A stretch of 64,000 nt of DNA, from positions 1-64,000 of the forward strand of contig JBBIPC010000002.1 in assembly GCA_037443035.1 (NCBI GenBank). Reading direction: 5' to 3'. The position numbers and the translations under genes are program-made. The notes under the pieces were generated by a model. That model was given only the letters and a program-made list of their open reading frames with translations. It was not told the origin of the DNA and did not search any database. This document shows, one piece after another, positions 46,606-58,288 of this stretch. How positions within the stretch are numbered: position 1 is the stretch's first letter; each line of letters opens with the position of its first letter. This stretch comes from Chthonomonadales bacterium. Lineage in GTDB: Bacteria; Armatimonadota; Chthonomonadetes; Chthonomonadales; CAJBBX01.

Positions 46606-48125
46606 TGGGAGGCTGGATCGTCACCCTTACGGTGCTGGCCCCACTGACGGCATCCCTGCTGCTGCTGGTGTTGCCGGCATCGCGTGGGCTTCTTGTCCGG
46701 CTCGTAGCAGCCCTCGGCGCAGGCATCACCCTCCCTGCGTCGTTGTGGTTGTGCTGGACCTATGACCTGCGCAAGGGTGGTTTTCAGCATGAACTGCGCA
46801 TTCCCTGGGTGCCATCGCTCGGCATCGGCTACCACGTAGGCGTAGATGGAATCAGTCTTTCCCTAGTCCTGCTCACCTCCCTCGTCATCACCTTCGGCGT
46901 CTTCGCCTCGTGGACGCAGAAGACTCGTACGAAGGAGTTCCTCGCCCTCCTGCTGCTGCTCGTGAGCGGGGTGTTCGGCGTATTCGTGTCCAGGGACCTG
47001 TTCTTCCTCTTCCTCTTCTACGAGATCGCCGTCCTACCGATGTACCTGCTGATCGGCGTCTGGGGAACGAGCTCGAAGGAGCGAACGAAGGAACATGCCG
47101 CCATGAAGCTCACGCTCATGTTACTCGGTGGCAGTGCGTTCATTCTCGTGGCGATCCTGGCCATCTACTTCGTTCAGCCCGTACGTTCCTTCGACCTGGA
47201 GCGCCTGGCGACCACCCGCTACTCCCCTGACTTCCAGACATGGGCGTTCCTTCTCGTCTACGTCGGCTTTGGCATCCTTGCAGGTATCTGGCCGCTGCAC
47301 ACATGGTCGCCTGACGGCCACGCTTCGGCTCCAACTGCCGTCTCCATGCTCCACGCAGGTGTCCTGATGAAGCTTGGCGCCTACGGCGTCTTGCGCGTGG
47401 GTGTGGGGCTCATGCCGGAAGGCGCCCAACACTGGGCTATGCTGATGGGCTGCATTGCGACGGTGAACATCCTCTACGGTGCCATGTCCGCCATGGGTCA
47501 GACGGACCTGAAGTACGTCATCGCTTACTCGTCTGTATCGCACATGGGCGTTGTCATGCTGGGGCTGGCGTCCCTGAATCCGGTGGGAATCAATGGGTCG
47601 GTCATGCAGATGTTCTCGCATGGCATCATGACGGGGCTGTTCTTCGCCGTGGTTGGCCTGATCTACGAGAAAGCCCATACACGGGATACGACGCGAATGG
47701 GCGGTTTCGCAAGGAGGATGCCTGGTATCGCAGTTACGATGACCGTCGGGGGGCTCGCCTCGTTCGGCTTACCGGCAACCAGCGGTTTCATCGCCGAGTT
47801 TCTGTCCTTCTACGGTATGTGGCTGCGAAGTCCTCTGCTCGCCCTTCTCGCAGTCGGCGGCATCGTGCTGACCGCCATTTATGTCCTCCGGATCATCCAG
47901 CGTGTCTTCCTCGGTCCATTCAACGAGTCCAACTACGCCGATCTTCGCGACGCCAGGACCACGGAGTGGCCCGCTATAGTTGCCCTTGCGTTGATCCTGC
48001 TCGTTGTCGGGCTCTGGCCACGGCCTCTGGTACGCATGATCGACTCCGGCATCCGTACCGCCCTGCCGTGGGTCCAGACCACGCAGGTGGCACAGTACCC
48101 TGGGAGAGACGTGGGCCAACGATGA
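46605..48125 (+). CDS. nuoM: NADH-quinone oxidoreductase subunit M
   Basis: GVDGIS, PLHTWSPDGHASAPT, AYSSVSHMG, GLPATSGFIAEF. Confidence 0.93.
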   Translation: MGGWIVTLTVLAPLTASLLLLVLPASRGLLVRLVAALGAGITLPASLWLCWTYDLRKGGFQHELRIPWVPSLGIGYHVGVDGISLSLVLLTSLVITFGVFASWTQKTRTKEFLALLLLLVSGVFGVFVSRDLFFLFLFYEIAVLPMYLLIGVWGTSSKERTKEHAAMKLTLMLLGGSAFILVAILAIYFVQPVRSFDLERLATTRYSPDFQTWAFLLVYVGFGILAGIWPLHTWSPDGHASAPTAVSMLHAGVLMKLGAYGVLRVGVGLMPEGAQHWAMLMGCIATVNILYGAMSAMGQTDLKYVIAYSSVSHMGVVMLGLASLNPVGINGSVMQMFSHGIMTGLFFAVVGLIYEKAHTRDTTRMGGFARRMPGIAVTMTVGGLASFGLPATSGFIAEFLSFYGMWLRSPLLALLAVGGIVLTAIYVLRIIQRVFLGPFNESNYADLRDARTTEWPAIVALALILLVVGLWPRPLVRMIDSGIRTALPWVQTTQVAQYPGRDVGQR

Positions 48126-50608
48126 CCCGCTCGCTAGGCGTTCGTCTTTGTGCTCACGCCGTGGCGCTGACAGGAGGTGTTCTCGCAGCCATGTGCCAAC
48201 AGAAAATCTCCGACTGGCCCTCCTCTGTGCTCGCTTTCCCCTACCCGCGCTCGAGCTCAGTCGGTAGCCCGCGTATCGTCGTTTACCGGCACGACATCCT
48301 CCGGCTGCAACGCAACAAGTCTGTCATTGGCACTCCATTGCGCATTGGCTCGCGGGAGTTCCGCTCCGGTCTGGGCACACATGCACCGTCCAGGCTCGTG
48401 GTCACGTCGCCGCGTCCGCTCGTCGCCGTAGCCGGCTGGCTAGGCGTGGATGCGAACGAGCGAACGCAGGGAGGGACCGGCTCGGTTGTATTCGTTGTTC
48501 GCGCTGACGGCGTGGAAGTGTACCGATCCCCTGTCGTTCGGCCAAAGCAGGATCCCCTGCGGTTGGATCTGAACCTGGCGTCGGCCCGCACTGTGGATCT
48601 GATCGTAGAGGACGCAGGTGATGGCGTGACCTGCGACCATGCGGACTGGGCCGACCTGCGCGTACGTCTCGCTGATGGCTCCGAACTAGCTGTCGCCGAC
48701 CTGGAGGAAGGTGTAGCGGATCTCTCCGGTCCCTATCCCTTCTCGTTCACCGTCGGAGGCAAAGCGTGCGGGGATGTCTTGCAGAGCTGGAAGAGTGAGG
48801 GGCACGATGAAACGCTTGCCGATGGACGGCGACACATCGAGCGTACATGGCTTCACCCCGACGGAACTCTCCGCGTCCGTTTCGATGCCGTCCAGTACAA
48901 GGACTTCCCGGCGGTAGACTGGGTTCTCCGGTTCGAAAACATTGGTACACGGGATACGCCGATCATCGAGAACGTCCTGCCGCTGGACTTCACCCTGAAC
49001 GCACCCAGAGATGGTGCATGGCCATATGTACTCCACCGGACCGCCGGCGGCACTCCGGACGCCCAGCAGTTCGCCTCGACCACTCTGGACATTGGCGGAG
49101 GCCAAACCGGCGAACTCAGTGCAGGCGGTGGTAGGTCTTCCACGAAGGACTTCCCGTTTTTCAAGGTGGACCTGAGCGACGGGGCGCTCATCGTCGCGAT
49201 AGGATGGTCGGGTAACTGGAAGGCCACCGTAGAATCGCCCGACAAGCGCCAACTGCACATCGCCGCAGGACAGGATGGCACCCGCTTCCTCCTGCATCCC
49301 GGCGAAACCGTCCGGACACCCCGCGTCCTCATGTTGCGCAGCAGGGGCGACAGCCTCGAAGCGAACGTCCTCTTTCGGCGGTTGATCTACAGACACTACG
49401 CTGCCCGGCGATCCGGCAAGAACCCCTTGCCAGTCCTGTTCAGCAACACATGTTTCACCCGAGGTGGCGGCTGGCTCAACGAGTGCAATGCCGCCAATCA
49501 GATCTCGCTGATCGACGCGTACGCGCCGCTCGGGCTGGAAGCCGTCATCACGGACGCAGGCTGGTTCGAGGGCGGCTGGCCGGACGGCGCTGGCAACTGG
49601 ACACCGAGGAAGGACGCATACCCACAGGGCATGGGGCCGGTGGCCGCCGCCGCCGCGAAGCACAACATGGTCTATGGCCTGTGGTTCGAGCCAGAACGAG
49701 TGGTAGCGGGTACTGGACTCCATCGGGAACATCCCGAATGGTGTCTGGCTGCTGGACCAGAACCGCAGCATACCTATCTGGCCAACTTCGCCCTCAAACC
49801 CGTAAGGGACTACTTCCTCCAAATCGTGAAAGGCTTCATGGATCTGCCAGGATTCAGGGTCTACAGGCAGGATTTCAACATGGATCCATTGCCCTACTGG
49901 AGATTCAACGACCGGCCGGACCGCCAGGGCATGACCGAAATGCAGTACATCGAAGGTCTCTATGCCTACTGGGACAGTCTGGCCCAAGCGTGGCCGGATA
50001 GCCTGCGGGAGGAGTGTGCCAGCGGCGGTCACCGAATCGATCTGGAGACGGTCAAACGCTTTCACATTCACCAGAAGACCGATTACTGGTTCGACAACGA
50101 GGTGGACCAGGCCAGCATCTGGTCTCTCAGCCAGTATCTGCCCAACAGTGTCTTTGTCGCTCCCATTGACAGGCTGGACGAGTACACTTACCATTCGGTG
50201 TTCGCCACATCGCTGTGCGTTGGTTGGATCGCCGACGCGCCCGAGTTTCCCACGACGCGTGCCAGCAAGATGCTCAGTCGCTACCTCGCTCTGCGACATT
50301 TCCTTGTAGGTGACTATTACCCCCTCACGGGTTATAGCCTGAACCAGAGGGACTGGATGGCCTACCAGTTCCATCGGCCGGACCTCGGAGCTGGCATCGT
50401 CATGGTGTTTCGACGACGGGAAAGCCCCTACAGGAGCGTGGAAGTGGCTTTGCATGGACTGGAGCCGGCGGCCACCTACACGCTCCGATCCGAGACATCC
50501 GGCAAGGTCACAGAGGGTCGTGGTGCCGCTCTGATGCAACAGATGGTGATTGCACTTCCAGCACCACATATGTCGGATATTCTCGTCTACCGGAAGGTGC
50601 AGAAGTGA
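48122..50608 (+). CDS. Secreted GH36-type alpha-galactosidase with NPCBM/NEW2 domain
   Basis: GLGTHAPS and CDHADWAD (NPCBM/NEW2); DAGWF, GLWFEPE, DFN and EECASGGHRID (GH36). ATGA overlap with nuoM and GTGA overlap with nuoN. Confidence 0.8.
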   Translation: MTRSLGVRLCAHAVALTGGVLAAMCQQKISDWPSSVLAFPYPRSSSVGSPRIVVYRHDILRLQRNKSVIGTPLRIGSREFRSGLGTHAPSRLVVTSPRPLVAVAGWLGVDANERTQGGTGSVVFVVRADGVEVYRSPVVRPKQDPLRLDLNLASARTVDLIVEDAGDGVTCDHADWADLRVRLADGSELAVADLEEGVADLSGPYPFSFTVGGKACGDVLQSWKSEGHDETLADGRRHIERTWLHPDGTLRVRFDAVQYKDFPAVDWVLRFENIGTRDTPIIENVLPLDFTLNAPRDGAWPYVLHRTAGGTPDAQQFASTTLDIGGGQTGELSAGGGRSSTKDFPFFKVDLSDGALIVAIGWSGNWKATVESPDKRQLHIAAGQDGTRFLLHPGETVRTPRVLMLRSRGDSLEANVLFRRLIYRHYAARRSGKNPLPVLFSNTCFTRGGGWLNECNAANQISLIDAYAPLGLEAVITDAGWFEGGWPDGAGNWTPRKDAYPQGMGPVAAAAAKHNMVYGLWFEPERVVAGTGLHREHPEWCLAAGPEPQHTYLANFALKPVRDYFLQIVKGFMDLPGFRVYRQDFNMDPLPYWRFNDRPDRQGMTEMQYIEGLYAYWDSLAQAWPDSLREECASGGHRIDLETVKRFHIHQKTDYWFDNEVDQASIWSLSQYLPNSVFVAPIDRLDEYTYHSVFATSLCVGWIADAPEFPTTRASKMLSRYLALRHFLVGDYYPLTGYSLNQRDWMAYQFHRPDLGAGIVMVFRRRESPYRSVEVALHGLEPAATYTLRSETSGKVTEGRGAALMQQMVIALPAPHMSDILVYRKVQK

Positions 50609-52122
50609 TCGAGCTCCGTGCACTGCTGCCGCATGCCGTTCTCATCGGTGTAGGACTGCTCGTCATTGCCCTGGACATTCTGCACGTGCGGCGCCGATTC
50701 TGCTGCCTGGGCGCCATCACCGCGGCAGGAGCATTTCTAGTCCTAGTTCTCGATTGGCAGGGTCCGACAGCAGCGCTTTGGCAGGGTCTCGCTGCAACGG
50801 ACGGGTTCTCGCGCGCATTCGACACCGTTTTCCTCCTCTCGCTGGCCATCGTTGCCATCGGCTCCGTCGGGTCCGAGAAGTGCGCCGTGTACGCGGGTGA
50901 GTACTTCGGTGTTCTAGCATTCAGCACGTTGGGGCTCATGCTTGCCGCTTCTGCGACGAGCCTTCTTGCCCTGTACATCGGTGTGGAGCTCACCACGATC
51001 GGCCTCATGGGTCTGGTAGGGTTCGCCAAGACCGAGAAACGCTCAGCCGAGGCAGCGGTAAAGCTGTTTGTCGTTGGAGCCGTGGCATCGGCGTTGGCTC
51101 TCTACGGAGCAGGGATCGTCTACGGAGTGGCCGGAACCACTGAGTATCACCGCGTGGTTGAAGCTTTGGGAACGGGTCGCGAGGGTTTCCCCTGGTTGAT
51201 GTGGCTTGGTCTGGCCTGCGTTATCGCCGGTCTGGGGTTCAAGATCGCCGCCGTACCGTTCCACCTTTGGGCACCCGACGTCTACGAAGGGGCGCCTACT
51301 GCTGTCAGCGCGTTCATCTCCACGGCTTCCAAGGCTGGTGGCATGGCCGGTCTCCTACGCTTTCTTGTCGTCGCCCTGGGCCACGCTGGAGACCGGTGGT
51401 TGCCGATCGTCGTGGTTCTGTCCCTCGGCTCCATGCTGCTGGGCAACCTGGCGGCCATCGCCCAGACGAACTTCAAGCGGATGCTGGCCTATTCGGGCAT
51501 TGCTCAGGCAGGTTACATGCTCGTCGCTGTGGCCGGCGCCTGGGCGCCCAGCAGCACGATGGCTGTAAGCGCCGTCGTCATGTATGCCTTCCTCTACGCG
51601 TTCACCAACATCGGTGGCTTCCTCGTTGCCCACGCAGTGGCTGAAGCCACCGGTAGCGATGACATCGCCGCACTGCGCGGGCTTCACAAGCGGTCTCCTT
51701 TCCTGGCCCTGACGGTTCTAGTCGTGCTGTTCTCGCTGGGTGGCATACCGCCGCTGGCTGGCTTTGTGGGCAAGCTCTACCTGTTCGCTGCAGGATGGGA
51801 TGGCGGCCAGGTGCTGCTCGTGAGCGTGGGCGCGGGCATCAGTGTGGTAGCTCTGTACTATTACCTTCGTGTCGCCCTGGAAGCGTATATCAAGGATCCG
51901 GACGATGCCAGCCCATTGCCTTTAGCACGCCCGGTCGGCGTTGCCCTCGCAGTGTGCGTTCTGGGTACCATTGCCATCGGAGTGTATCCGCGACCATGGG
52001 TGAGCCTTGGCGAACAGGCAGCGAAGGCGCTCGCGCCCAGCCTTCCGGCGAGAGCTAGCGTCGGCACTCCCGAGAAGCCAACCTTGACAGGAGCAGGCCG
52101 TGTTCTACCTAACCGTTCATGA
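50605..52122 (+). CDS. nuoN: NADH-quinone oxidoreductase subunit N
   Basis: FKIAAVPFHLWAPDVYEGAPT, KRMLAYSGIAQAGY, GIPPLAGFVGK. Confidence 0.95.
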   Translation: MIELRALLPHAVLIGVGLLVIALDILHVRRRFCCLGAITAAGAFLVLVLDWQGPTAALWQGLAATDGFSRAFDTVFLLSLAIVAIGSVGSEKCAVYAGEYFGVLAFSTLGLMLAASATSLLALYIGVELTTIGLMGLVGFAKTEKRSAEAAVKLFVVGAVASALALYGAGIVYGVAGTTEYHRVVEALGTGREGFPWLMWLGLACVIAGLGFKIAAVPFHLWAPDVYEGAPTAVSAFISTASKAGGMAGLLRFLVVALGHAGDRWLPIVVVLSLGSMLLGNLAAIAQTNFKRMLAYSGIAQAGYMLVAVAGAWAPSSTMAVSAVVMYAFLYAFTNIGGFLVAHAVAEATGSDDIAALRGLHKRSPFLALTVLVVLFSLGGIPPLAGFVGKLYLFAAGWDGGQVLLVSVGAGISVVALYYYLRVALEAYIKDPDDASPLPLARPVGVALAVCVLGTIAIGVYPRPWVSLGEQAAKALAPSLPARASVGTPEKPTLTGAGRVLPNRS

Positions 52123-52615
52123 CATCGTCTGGGTCAACGAGCTTATCTGCGGCGCCGGAGTACCCTTCGACTACGAGCTTCTGGAAGCCTGCATGGCAGC
52201 ACAGTACGGCTATGGTGATAGCCGTGACGTACTGGGTCAGGCCGGCGCGTTCGCCGAGAAGATGATTCGCACCGTTCCGTTTCGCGAGGGGAATCTGCGC
52301 ACGGGGCTTGTGTGCGTGACGATGTTCTTGACCGGTAACCGGCTATCGCTGGAACCGGACGCGAGTCGCCTCTTGGAGGTCGCTCGGGCGGTCCAGGCTG
52401 GCGCGTCCGAAGGCGAGGATCTTGTCGCAGCGCTACGGGGTCGCTTCGGCTCACAGACGCCGCAGGAGGCTGCGGTCAATGCCGGTCGTCCGCCTGCGGT
52501 CCGGAGTCTTGCATCGCAAGCGCTGGCGCGGCTGGGGCCTGTACTGGACGCTTGCGCGGAGGAGGACGGTCCGGTTCCCGGATGGACCGCCTCTCCATAT
52601 CTTCACAGGGACTAG
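52100..52615 (+). CDS. Fic/Doc-fold protein with degenerate active site
   Basis: YLTVHDI N-terminus; VPFREGNLRTG versus canonical HPFxDGNxR; AGGAG RBS. Confidence 0.7.
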   Translation: MFYLTVHDIVWVNELICGAGVPFDYELLEACMAAQYGYGDSRDVLGQAGAFAEKMIRTVPFREGNLRTGLVCVTMFLTGNRLSLEPDASRLLEVARAVQAGASEGEDLVAALRGRFGSQTPQEAAVNAGRPPAVRSLASQALARLGPVLDACAEEDGPVPGWTASPYLHRD

Positions 52616-53349
52616 GACTCCAGTCGTTGCCGCCGACGTGGATGCCGAAGGTGGCACACTAGCAGGCAGCCACCGCGCACGCGAATGCGCACCCTAGCGT
52701 CCACGAACACATTGCTAACGCCTAACGAGCCGGGCTCGAGATCCCGATCCTCCAGAGGCCATCGCACACCGGTAAGTGTCACGCCGTGCACGGGAGCCAT
52801 TACGACGAGCGACAGAGTGTCTCCTGGTGACCCTGTGAGTTCGGCCTGATCCGTCACCGCAATCAGTTCGCTCTTGGCGTCTACGTGGCGTAGGCGAAAC
52901 TGGTCTGCGTACTTGAGCATCACGCTGATCGTCGTGAGTGCGTGGTCGAGGCGGTATCCGAGGGCACCTACGAGAGTAGCGTCCGTACACCCCAGATCTC
53001 TAGCGTACTGCAGTGCCTTCTCAAGGTCGCACATGTTCTGATCGGGCAGATGGATACGACAGCGAGCAGGGAACTGATCGAGCATCTCAGGTTCGACAGA
53101 GTCGAAGTCGCCGACAACGTAGTCGGGCACAAGACCGTGTACGAGCAGTCGTGTGGCGGCCCCGTCCGTCGCGATAACTACGTCGGCGACTCGCTGGAGT
53201 CTTCGCAGCAGCCGTATCCCCGGTATGGCGCCGTTGGCAACGATGAGACAACGGCGAGATGCCGGGACCGGCCTGGTTTCACGAACGTCATGTGCGCAGA
53301 CGTGGTCGTTGGACCGCGGCGAGGTCCCGGTTCTCCTGCTCAATCGCAC
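52612..53349 (-). CDS. thiN: Thiamine diphosphokinase
   Basis: LIVANG, IATDGAA, VVGDFDS, DQNMCDLEKAL, GALGYRLDH, GVRWPL, GVSN. Start approximate; overlaps the pilin gene stop. Confidence 0.92.
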   Translation of the reverse strand: MRLSRRTGTSPRSNDHVCAHDVRETRPVPASRRCLIVANGAIPGIRLLRRLQRVADVVIATDGAATRLLVHGLVPDYVVGDFDSVEPEMLDQFPARCRIHLPDQNMCDLEKALQYARDLGCTDATLVGALGYRLDHALTTISVMLKYADQFRLRHVDAKSELIAVTDQAELTGSPGDTLSLVVMAPVHGVTLTGVRWPLEDRDLEPGSLGVSNVFVDARVRIRVRGGCLLVCHLRHPRRRQRLES

Positions 53350-54080
53350 CCTCGATAGTACATCCTGCCGGTGGCGGGGTTGATGTCGCCGCTCCGCTCA
53401 CCTCCCGGACACACCACATGCTTGTCGAACTCATCGTTGGAGACGGTGAACTTCGCATGACCGTCAACGAAGATAACGGTCCCCCCGCGCGGATGCCATA
53501 GCTGGAAGTAATCGGGCACGTACGCATACTTCGGCATCGTGAAAAACGGAAACATCTCGTCCCGCATCATCCGCGTTTCAGCAGGAAGAACGAACGAGGA
53601 GTCGTAGACCATTCGCGTCCACGAGTAGACAAAGTTGTTCTGGCTCGATTCGCCCCCCACGACGCAGAAGCTGCCCTTGCTGAACCGATAGCTGGACCCG
53701 TAGCACGCATGGTACGTCGTCCTGCCCGGACATCCGTAGAACGGGTCGCTCAGTGCAGGACCGCCAGCATCGTCGGGACAGCGGAAGATATCCTTGTTCT
53801 TGCCGTACGGAAGGATAAGCAGCTCTACGCCCTTGTGGCCTGGCGACCCTGATGGAGGCTGCGAGTTGTATGCGTAGAAAATGGGCATGGTCTCATCATA
53901 GTCCGACACATACATACGCACCTGCATGCCCACCTGCCGTGCATGCGTCACGCATACGGTCTCCCGAGCCTTCTCGCGAGCCTGAGAGAAGACGGGGAAG
54001 AGTATCGCTGCGAGGATGGCGATGATAGCGATCACCACCAGTAGCTCGATCAGCGTGAATGCCCTTCTACTGTCCTTCAT
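53340..54080 (-). CDS. Prepilin-type N-terminal cleavage/methylation protein with H-X9-DG motif (DUF1559-like)
   Basis: [55 protein letters not shown] at 54089-54094. Confidence 0.9.
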   Translation of the reverse strand: MKDSRRAFTLIELLVVIAIIAILAAILFPVFSQAREKARETVCVTHARQVGMQVRMYVSDYDETMPIFYAYNSQPPSGSPGHKGVELLILPYGKNKDIFRCPDDAGGPALSDPFYGCPGRTTYHACYGSSYRFSKGSFCVVGGESSQNNFVYSWTRMVYDSSFVLPAETRMMRDEMFPFFTMPKYAYVPDYFQLWHPRGGTVIFVDGHAKFTVSNDEFDKHVVCPGGERSGDINPATGRMYYRGCD

Positions 54081-54150
54081 GTGTGTCACTCCTTCCGACG
54101 CGGGTACGCGCCGTACGGAGCTGACACCTCGGCCCGGGTCCAGACAGCAT

Positions 54151-54190
54151 AACGCCGCTGTCCCGAGCCGATCGTCAGGACAACGGCGTC
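54151..54190 (-). terminator. Expression-platform hairpin of TPP riboswitch
   Basis: 16-bp stem GACGCCGTTGTCCTGA/TCGGGACAGCGGCGTT (with G-U pairs) downstream of the aptamer; weak U-tract. Confidence 0.55.
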
Positions 54191-54207
54191 ACCAATGCGA
54201 TGCATCG

Positions 54208-54300
54208 TCGCTTCCCTCCGTCGGCATTACCCGCATCAGGTTCATGGGGTTCCCCGCAGATTGCGAGGTCTCAGCCGGCCTACGCCAGCACCCCCAGCGT
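54208..54300 (-). ncRNA. TPP riboswitch (THI element)
   Basis: Minus strand reads CGCTGGGGGTGCTGGCGTAGGCCGGCTGAGA...AACCCCATGAACCTGATGCGGGTAATGCCGACGGAGGGAAGCG. It contains GGGGTGC, CTGAGA, ACCC, GAACCTGAT, GTAATGCC and GGGAAG. Confidence 0.95.
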
Positions 54301-54345
54301 TCGTTATTCTAATGTGGGACCAGTCTTCCGACCAAGCCCGAACTG

Positions 54346-54375
54346 TCTATACCGCGCCAGGTGCGGTCTTGTCAA
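54346..54375 (-). promoter_or_regulatory. Putative sigma70 promoter for TPP-riboswitch operon
   Basis: TTGACA-N18-TATAGA on the minus strand. An alternative -10 (TAGAAT at 54306-54311) lies just before the aptamer. Confidence 0.5.
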
Positions 54376-57148: not shown

Positions 57149-57463
57149 CTACTTGCCGCCTGCTCCTTTGCCGCCCATCATGAGACCGGGCTGCTGCGCT
57201 GGTCCTTCCATGCCTGCGCCTGCAGGTCCCTCAGCGGAACCACCCTTGACGCCGACATTGGCGGCCGGAGCCTCCTCGCCCTGCTGCTGCTGCATGAGCT
57301 GTGCCTTGCCAACGAAGCCAGGGAGGGACCCCTTGTTCTCGCCTTGAGAGGACCGCACGGTTCGCGTGATGGAGAAGATCGCCGCGGCGACCGCTAGAAT
57401 CGCGATGACGACTACCAGCACTGTGCGACCCGAGGAGTTACCTTCGCCTGATGCTCTGGCCAT
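57149..57463 (-). CDS. Small single-TM protein with low-complexity Gly/Pro/Gln tail
   Basis: VLVVVIAILAVAAAIFSI TM; AAAGGA RBS; directly downstream of the pilin-like gene. Confidence 0.7.
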   Translation of the reverse strand: MARASGEGNSSGRTVLVVVIAILAVAAAIFSITRTVRSSQGENKGSLPGFVGKAQLMQQQQGEEAPAANVGVKGGSAEGPAGAGMEGPAQQPGLMMGGKGAGGK

Positions 57464-57490
57464 GTGTGTTGTCCTTTGGCCTCTCGCAGG

Positions 57491-58288
57491 CTACTTGTAC
57501 TGGGCGTCCCAGTGCAGATAGTTCGGCTTGGATCCATCCCACTGCCCACCTACCACGCGGCACATGCGCAGGCGATCCATGGTCTTCACATGTCCATCCG
57601 CAAAGCCGAAGTTCGTCAGGCGATTGTGGGCACCAATGCTGAAACGCGCGTCGCCAGTCCCGCACCAATTCACCGTGAAGTAGTCGGGCGCCGTTGGCCA
57701 AGTTGGATCCGCGATATCCGAGTTGTCCCATCGCCAGTAGGACATGTATCTGGCGTAGCTGACCGTTGTCCACAACTCGTAGAGGTTCGCTGTCTCTGCT
57801 GGTGCACCCACTTCGGCCTGGGTTCGCGATCGCTCGGCGTTGTAGTACGCGTGCACTCCGAAGGTGTTGTACGGGTAGCCGTTCTGGTAGTGGGTCCAAG
57901 AGTAGCTGATGGGATAGCCGATGCCTGTTCCGTACCGGTCCACGCCGCAGTCATCCCGCTGGATACCGTCGCTGGGGCACTTCCACACGCCACCGTTCTT
58001 GATGTACGGTGCTAACGCATTTTCCGAACCCCACATCTGATCGGGATCTCCGGGGTTGTTGTTGTTGAACGACGCAACCCCGCACTTGATCCGGTGGAAC
58101 ATCTCGTCGTAGTCCTGGCTGTACATGAGCGCAGCCGTCAGGAGCTGCTTCATGTTGGAGATGCAGGATGCCTGCCTGGCCTTTTCACGGGCCTGAGCGA
58201 AGACAGGGAACAGAATCGCGGCTAGGATCGCGATGATCGCGATCACGACCAACAGCTCGATGAGGGTGAAACCACGTGCTCGATGCAT
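57491..58288 (-). CDS. Prepilin-type N-terminal cleavage/methylation protein with H-X9-DG motif (DUF1559-like)
   Basis: [66 protein letters not shown]. Confidence 0.9.

Follow-up and report, generated by a model that had tools for sequence, protein, structure and literature searches.

The DNA stretch analysed here, a 64-kb window from the genome of a Chthonomonadales bacterium, carries on its minus strand a thiamine pyrophosphate (TPP) riboswitch followed by two genes, one encoding a prepilin-type protein with the H-X9-DG motif (hereafter the pilin protein) and the other, thiN, encoding thiamine diphosphokinase. The pairing of switch and pilin gene at this locus is genuine and conserved, and known transporters do not account for it. 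From gene content and genomic context we propose, with a probability of about 0.65, that the pair constitutes a thiamine-uptake and salvage operon in which the pilin-fold protein would serve in the envelope to capture thiamine and hand it to a permease and to ThiN.

A first-pass annotation had described a canonical TPP aptamer followed by a strong hairpin and a ribosome-binding site, then a prepilin-type FTLIE/H-X9-DG gene whose end overlaps the start of thiN, in a unit with no thiamine synthesis gene or known transporter; all of this was borne out. The aptamer is a full-model match to RF00059 (70.2 bits; gathering score 54.3), the sole RNA family matched by Rfam in the window and the sole TPP match in the whole genome (3.76 Mb, rated 100% complete). 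The hairpin and an AAGGAG Shine-Dalgarno (SD) sequence follow it, and the H-X9-DG motif is present literally. ThiN matches TIGR01378 at 146.5 bits (cut-off 76.4), together with both of its Pfam domains; the only in-frame starts ahead of its catalytic domain, GTG 53349 and TTG 53343, both overlap the 3′ end of the pilin gene. The downstream boundary is set by a convergent Fic-like open reading frame (ORF; 52100-52615, plus strand), which closes the unit at two genes, the pilin gene and thiN alone, without a transporter.

Conservation of the riboswitch–pilin pairing

Conservation was assessed in two sets, 61 genomes of the order and an even sample of 141 Armatimonadota genomes searched with the head domain. 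Of the former, 53 have a clear orthologue of the pilin protein (54 loci, that of the window included). The orthologues are mostly single-copy and 60-81% identical (one is 50% identical), paralogues being about 40% identical. Retention of the riboswitch by orthologues had been set beforehand as a test capable of refuting the proposal: a same-strand TPP aptamer lies 53-251 nt upstream at 54/54 loci of the order (one, at 52.6 bits, scores just below the 54.3 cut-off), and upstream of the orthologue in 34/34 orthologue-bearing genomes outside it, from 8 families. No orthologue without an upstream switch was found in the 61 genomes or in the phylum sample. In 43 of the genomes of the order the pilin-linked switch is the only TPP match, and in one more (G016), outside the 54 loci, it precedes an orthologue copy cut by a contig end. 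Since 45 genes of the source genome score at least 100 bits on a profile of the pilin family, a pilin gene might stand beside a riboswitch by accident; the conserved linkage rules out such a chance neighbourhood.

The genes further downstream are less constant. ThiN linkage, also anticipated by the first-pass annotation, stands for 32/54 loci (thiN within 1.2 kb downstream) and fails for the remaining 22. A sodium:solute symporter gene (PF00474) lies within 2.2 kb downstream at 27/54 (in third position at 26 of these, in second position at the other); both genes are present at 26/54 loci and neither at 21/54. G019, where the gene is split, enters these counts through its 3′ piece; of the loci lacking both neighbours, one or more are cut by a contig end. 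Because the switch is kept where thiN (22/54) or the symporter (27/54) is not adjacent, the pilin gene is its constant target.

A second pilin clade shows a similar arrangement: at 2 loci of family f17 the order is TPP switch, a different pilin gene, symporter-like gene, and in the tree this clade forms a branch separate from the main TPP clade. Where the next gene was read, the remaining TPP switches precede thiC, thiE/thiG, thi4-like genes or the f17-type pilin with its symporter, with one ruvC-like exception, these names being readings of translations. A tandem second orthologue copy occurs in two genomes outside the order (G084 and G097); in G053, which carries two copies, a separate switch serves each, and in some f16 and f26 genomes a second, different prepilin gene comes after the TPP-linked pilin. 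A search directed beyond the phylum listed mostly distant paralogues; among 77 of the loci listed, a TPP-like match occurs at one, which is the one true orthologue.

Control of expression

The 241-nt leader has a folding z-score of -4.9 relative to shuffled sequences. The hairpin downstream of the aptamer is the counterpart of a terminator-like hairpin in relatives, its U tail being degenerate in this genome, and its 3′ arm has a possible 7-bp pairing with the P5 strand of the aptamer. In 19/29 relatives a GC arm and U tract lie 3′ of the aptamer, against 2.9 expected from shuffles; this excess suggests transcription termination as the mode of control in those genomes. In the source genome the predicted probability that the SD sequence is unpaired falls from 0.95 in the ligand-free leader to 0.40 when the aptamer is locked, so that control of the pilin gene may here be translational. 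Two conserved mechanisms were considered and set aside: SD masking, predicted in this genome, is inconsistent among the 12 relatives computed, and antiterminator pairing ranges from 0 to 7 bp across relatives, with no covariation shown.

Transcription of the unit likely starts from a TTGACA-18 nt-TATAGA pair upstream of the aptamer, the putative -35 box of which overlaps a thioredoxin stop codon; TTGAC..TAxxxT occurs at a comparable position in several relatives' loci. A consensus promoter scan did not call this pair and returned one other site, at chance level.

Sequence and predicted structure of the pilin protein

The pilin protein (246 residues from its ATG) begins with the leader MKDSRRA, followed by FTLIE with glutamate at +5, and matches the Pfam N_methyl family PF07963 at 36.4 bits (cut-off 21.2) and TIGR02532 at 31.9 bits. 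Its class III signal has Phe+1, Glu+5 and a long α-1 helix, but residue -1 is alanine rather than the usual glycine; alanine occupies this position in 31/38 orthologues, compared with glycine in 34/43 family members of this genome. We take it that alanine at -1 may weaken prepilin cleavage. The match to DUF1559 (PF07596) is 19 bits, under the 23.3 cut-off, many orthologues having a precomputed PF07596 match. The C-terminal motif H196-X9-D206-G207 is invariant or nearly so in orthologues, and the TIGR04294 (H-X9-DG) model does not match the protein despite it. In a search of a protein-cluster atlas the pilin protein retrieved only unnamed or DUF1559-type clusters. One member of a homologous cluster is named H-X9-DG protein by JGI, and the distant homologues of its head for which a taxon is given are all from Armatimonadota. 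No TIGR01254 (ThiB) match occurs in the genome, and the only solute-binding-protein family matched by the pilin protein is, weakly, PF07596.

Within the head, H196, D206 and H208 are invariant among orthologues. D206 and H208 are also invariant in every aligned paralogue, including those linked to B12 and LacI-type regulators (see below), and therefore look like part of the scaffold of the whole family. A further 30 or so residues of the head show near-invariance in the TPP clade alone, among them F68, Y71, H82, E86, Y123, F133, R170, R173, E175, F180, Y185 and W195.

AlphaFold2 models of the window protein and of an orthologue have mean confidence (predicted local distance difference test) scores of 93.9 and 91.6, respectively, and consist of a 51-residue helix and one loop-rich head. 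The predicted structure resembles an enlarged type IV pilin fold, that of a helical-stalk protein and not an outer-membrane β-barrel of the PF00593 type. The top 18 structural matches from 48,161 chains are all pilins or pseudopilins, aligned over residues 5-223; the best, PilA4, has a Z-score of 5.0 and a root-mean-square deviation of 3.7 over 123 residues, and the best Z-score for an orthologue is 5.6. A shared pilin fold says nothing of function. No two-lobed classical binding-protein fold is found among the best 50 entries of the fold searches, and no hydrolase stands out in either sequence or fold searches.

The genome encodes machinery of the kind with which pilins assemble: three type IV filament or type II secretion system (T2SS) clusters, one of them a complete T2SS-type cluster, together with a prepilin peptidase, ATPases, platform proteins, six secretin matches and LptF/G. 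These machines are encoded away from the pilin–thiN locus and have short pilins of their own; three tandem secretin matches (C34:7281-11198) lie apart from the type IV filament clusters.

Thiamine requirement and transport gene content

ThiC, present in 11/61 genomes of the order, is absent from this genome; ThiE was not found either, in a search that did not include fused ThiDN-type alternatives, and a ThiG match was rejected as a 50-residue fragment (E 2e-4). A cell with ThiN and without ThiE needs intact thiamine, so that, by gene content, the source organism is a thiamine auxotroph. Across the order ThiC occurs in 4/7 genomes without the pilin orthologue and in 7/54 with it (G016 counted), with a Fisher p of 0.03 that was computed without the G016 correction and ignores kinship.

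No TonB receptor (PF00593), PnuC, ThiB, ThiT or NCS1 protein is present in the genome; YkoCDE and other energy-coupling factor S-components were not searched for. Candidate substitutes for the missing permease were rejected: NCS1 occurs in 0/61 genomes, an NMT1 match is a phosphonate-type binding protein, and two other PF00474-type symporter genes are unlinked to the locus.

Paralogues downstream of other ligand-sensing regulators

The only cobalamin riboswitch of the genome (C4:148076-148217) lies 210 nt ahead of another H-X9-DG paralogue, with a Peripla_BP_2 (BtuF-like) gene next in line, the locus spanning C4:148076-149150. The order has 70 cobalamin matches, and at 25/30 of the loci listed for them a pilin paralogue is the first gene; the other five, from their translations, lead to cob genes, ribonucleotide reductase, two BtuF-like proteins and a probable TonB receptor. 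The B12-linked and TPP-linked proteins form separate branches of a quick tree, with SH-like approximate likelihood-ratio support of 95 and 98. Often following the B12-linked pilin (seven loci noted) is a small Cys-rich ORF (C-x-C...CG-x-x-CG-x-C) that resembles a BFD-like 2Fe-2S protein. Of 40 paralogue regions scanned for riboswitches, only this cobalamin-linked one had a match.

A similar pattern holds for LacI-type regulators. A paralogue lies 82-603 nt downstream, on the same strand, of 10/10 strong LacI-type genes (those 10 being drawn from 14 matches above the cut-off in this genome), for which the chance expectation is about 0.005 per site; such loci include C3:91165, C23:27594 and C2:226443. 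In four other genomes the pairing recurs at 19/29 top LacI loci, one weak locus from a fifth genome having been left out. Neighbours of the paralogues include glycoside hydrolases (GH43, glucoamylase, melibiase, arabinofuranosidase) and an ATP-binding cassette (ABC) binding protein. Three paralogues, two of which are LacI-linked, have genes for DUF6785/DUF6784 membrane proteins nearby, and these proteins may provide the family with inner-membrane permeases. At C10:74770-78194, the family member nearest to the TPP clade has no riboswitch even at a lax threshold and precedes FmdE-like, CbiQ and ABC ATPase genes; such neighbours suggest a variant for the uptake of nickel or cobalt.

The first-pass annotation had extrapolated from the thiamine case to a general role of the family as nutrient receptors, and the genomic tests run on that idea, with both cobalamin switches and LacI-type regulators, came out in its favour. 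At its fullest, the H-X9-DG paralogues of Armatimonadota (and probably of PVC bacteria, the Planctomycetes–Verrucomicrobia–Chlamydiae group) would be a library of interchangeable receptor pilins, each dedicated to a single ligand (thiamine, cobalamin, particular sugars or possibly a metal), each induced through the riboswitch or regulator of its own ligand, incorporated in a common type IV filament and drawn in through a secretin. We regard this extension as tentative and, on balance, doubtful.

Proposed role and alternative explanations

In the proposed thiamine-capture pathway, low TPP would switch the operon on and the class III signal would insert the pilin protein in the inner membrane, where its clade-specific head would bind intact thiamine (or thiamine phosphate) outside the cytoplasm. 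An inner-membrane permease, which in roughly half the relatives would be a ThiV-like symporter and here some other carrier, would then import the vitamin, and ThiN would convert it to TPP, shutting the switch. Delivery may follow either of two routes, to which we give about even odds: the pilin protein could be a membrane-anchored periplasmic binder, or a subunit of a type IV filament extending through a secretin and later retracting. Competence pili bind and pull in substrate. The alanine at -1, with its perhaps weaker cleavage, leaves room for the anchored form. The suggestion that the pilin occupies the 'transporter slot' of the operon holds in part, in that an outer capture slot fits; it does not hold for the permease, because a symporter gene is present as well at 27/54 loci, and the pilin is thus not a stand-in for a whole transporter.

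Several observations weigh against thiamine capture. The symporter orthologue, found in 33/61 genomes of the order, is missing from this genome and 27 others, which leaves the inner-membrane step here unexplained. No thiamine-binding fold or pocket was identified in the fold searches, and the structural Z-scores (5.0-5.6) are modest. Aromatic enrichment, considered as a sign of a thiamine pocket, was discarded, the head having a fraction of 0.167 compared with a paralogue median of 0.153 and a 90th percentile of 0.175. The orthologue is patchy in the phylum (47/141 genomes), related genomes are non-independent trials, seven ThiC-positive genomes retain the orthologue, and G002 and G005, whose genomes are 96% and 92% complete, possess thiN while lacking ThiC, any TPP match and the orthologue. 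For the wider receptor role, paralogue C3:209532 groups with the B12 clade and has no riboswitch even at a lax threshold. TonB receptors, at 0-6 per genome, occur in 86/141 phylum genomes; they are scarce, not absent, and the pilin family is accordingly not a strict replacement for them.

The pilin or pseudopilin fold predicted for the protein, the complete T2SS-type cluster and the glycoside hydrolase genes often found downstream of paralogues would also suit a thiamine-regulated protein that carries no vitamin, either a specificity pseudopilin for T2SS export or display or a sensor of nutrient status. No secreted-enzyme gene lies downstream in the TPP loci read, however, where a cytoplasmic kinase and a permease recur, and the B12-linked paralogue of this genome precedes a periplasmic binding protein; we consider an adaptor or sensor unlikely. 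Still less probable is an envelope enzyme with a conserved His/Asp/His metal site, releasing importable thiamine from environmental TPP or thiamine monophosphate. Such an activity would serve an organism that has ThiN, lacks ThiE and requires free thiamine, and it would account for the invariant H196, D206 and H208, but two of these residues belong to the scaffold shared with B12- and LacI-linked paralogues, and the searches offered no hydrolase.

That the protein is a structural or adhesive pilin tied to thiamine starvation, mediating for example attachment to thiamine-producing partner cells, would be in keeping with its class III signal, Glu+5 and 51-residue helix, with the three type IV filament clusters and six secretin matches, and with the published view that in Fimbriimonas the 79 PulG-like genes encode pili for attachment (PMC4072686). 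The clade-specific conservation of the head and the co-location with permease and kinase genes fit a small-molecule role better, and we hold an adhesive function to be quite improbable. Finally, the switch of the window covers thiN too, and could in principle serve thiN or the symporter with the pilin gene in front by chance. The 21/54 loci that have neither gene and yet keep the switch on the pilin largely refute this, and the second, separate pilin clade shows the same pattern, so that a hitchhiking pilin gene is scarcely credible.

Relation to known systems

The closest known parallel to the proposed operon is OMthi-pnuT-tnr3 of Bacteroidetes, which, according to PMC5613172, combines a TPP switch, an envelope component, an inner-membrane permease and thiamine pyrophosphokinase, as one operon in most gut Bacteroidetes and split in some. 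Gene order is alike, with the pilin-fold protein in the position of the OMthi receptor; the first gene here nevertheless encodes a 246-residue pilin-fold protein and not a TonB-dependent barrel, and the permease of the relatives is a sodium:solute symporter, not PnuT, and was not found in this genome. A PF00474 symporter under a TPP switch also recalls ThiV/SSSP. ThiV of SAR11 is a candidate carrier of the precursor hydroxymethylpyrimidine (HMP), and the accessible part of PMC11452348 names no pilin-like partner for it; this genome, without ThiE, requires intact thiamine rather than HMP, and the likeness to ThiV is by family only.

The DUF1559 family has been called solute-binding, and its members probable receptors, on the strength of the Pfam label (PMC2754498), and at least 41 such genes per genome are reported for Planctomycetales, with the proteins in detergent-soluble fractions S2 and S3 (PMC8567305); the sections of these two papers that were available name neither a ligand nor a riboswitch for the family. 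In Fimbriimonas, thiamine pyrophosphokinase is the sole thiamine gene, and the available text does not link it with the PulG-like genes (PMC4072686). No riboswitch or ligand tied to the pilin family appears among the matches listed from titles and abstract openings of PMC (CC-licensed) and bioRxiv, supplements and subscription journals being outside that scope; published riboswitch surveys may include such genes in tabular listings. In the glycan literature searched by term, discussion of the pilin family goes no further than a comment on adhesion and another on T2SS up-regulation. The general solute-binding idea is thus already in print as a Pfam label; the link to thiamine and a riboswitch was not found in the literature searched.

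Within the PF07596/TIGR04294 paralogue family, the pilin protein shares the prepilin signal and carries a weak, sub-threshold DUF1559 match and a literal H-X9-DG that the curated model does not score; its TPP clade differs from the family at large in being mostly single-copy, conserved and below both curated cut-offs. With type IV pilins and T2SS pseudopilins it shares the class III signal, and its predicted fold resembles theirs (Z-score 3.9 for ComP, a DNA-binding minor pilin). Unlike type IV pilins, it has a head about twice the usual size, is encoded outside an assembly cluster and has the alanine described above at -1; its proposed ligand would be a small molecule.

The locus and its surroundings in the window

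The features of the unit are collected in Table 1. The Fic/Doc-like ORF that bounds it matches at 23 bits, below cut-off, and has a 4-nt convergent overlap with the thiN stop. A second H-X9-DG paralogue (57149-58288, minus strand) lies 4 kb off and has no riboswitch; the next gene after it encodes a 104-residue single-helix membrane protein with no Pfam match. Further away, a gene with NPCBM and melibiase (α-galactosidase-like) domains (47819-50608, plus strand) stands between nuoM-like and nuoN-like genes of an NADH dehydrogenase operon.

Table 1. Features of the riboswitch–pilin–thiN unit, in window coordinates
Feature	Position	Strand	Basis or proposed role
Putative promoter, TTGACA (54375-54370)-18 nt-TATAGA (54351-54346)	54346..54375	-	Read from sequence
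TPP riboswitch aptamer RF00059	54196..54305	-	Rfam match, 70.2 bits
Putative expression-platform hairpin	54151..54190	-	Leader folding and comparison with relatives
Shine-Dalgarno AAGGAG	54089..54094	-	Sequence
Prepilin-type H-X9-DG (DUF1559-like) gene, 246 aa	53340..54080	-	Candidate thiamine-capture protein
thiN, thiamine diphosphokinase	52612..53349	-	TIGR01378, 146.5 bits

Significance

Genes combining N_methyl with DUF1559/H-X9-DG number dozens per genome in Armatimonadota and Planctomycetota, and no ligand is named for them in the literature searched. The TPP clade supplies a candidate ligand that is named, cheap and measurable, together with a conserved, well-folded head of 190 residues that can be purified, so that the function of the family becomes testable in one binding experiment; the B12-switch paralogue and the ten LacI-linked paralogues of the same genome provide specificity controls. 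Receptors of this kind may account for the uptake of vitamins and sugars by diderm bacteria in which TonB receptors are few or lacking. A need for filament assembly would mean a novel function for type IV filaments, and filament-dependent uptake, if shown, would be a new kind of system. Should the receptor-pilin library prove true, pili would offer a way of bringing nutrients across the outer membrane other than TonB/SusCD uptake.

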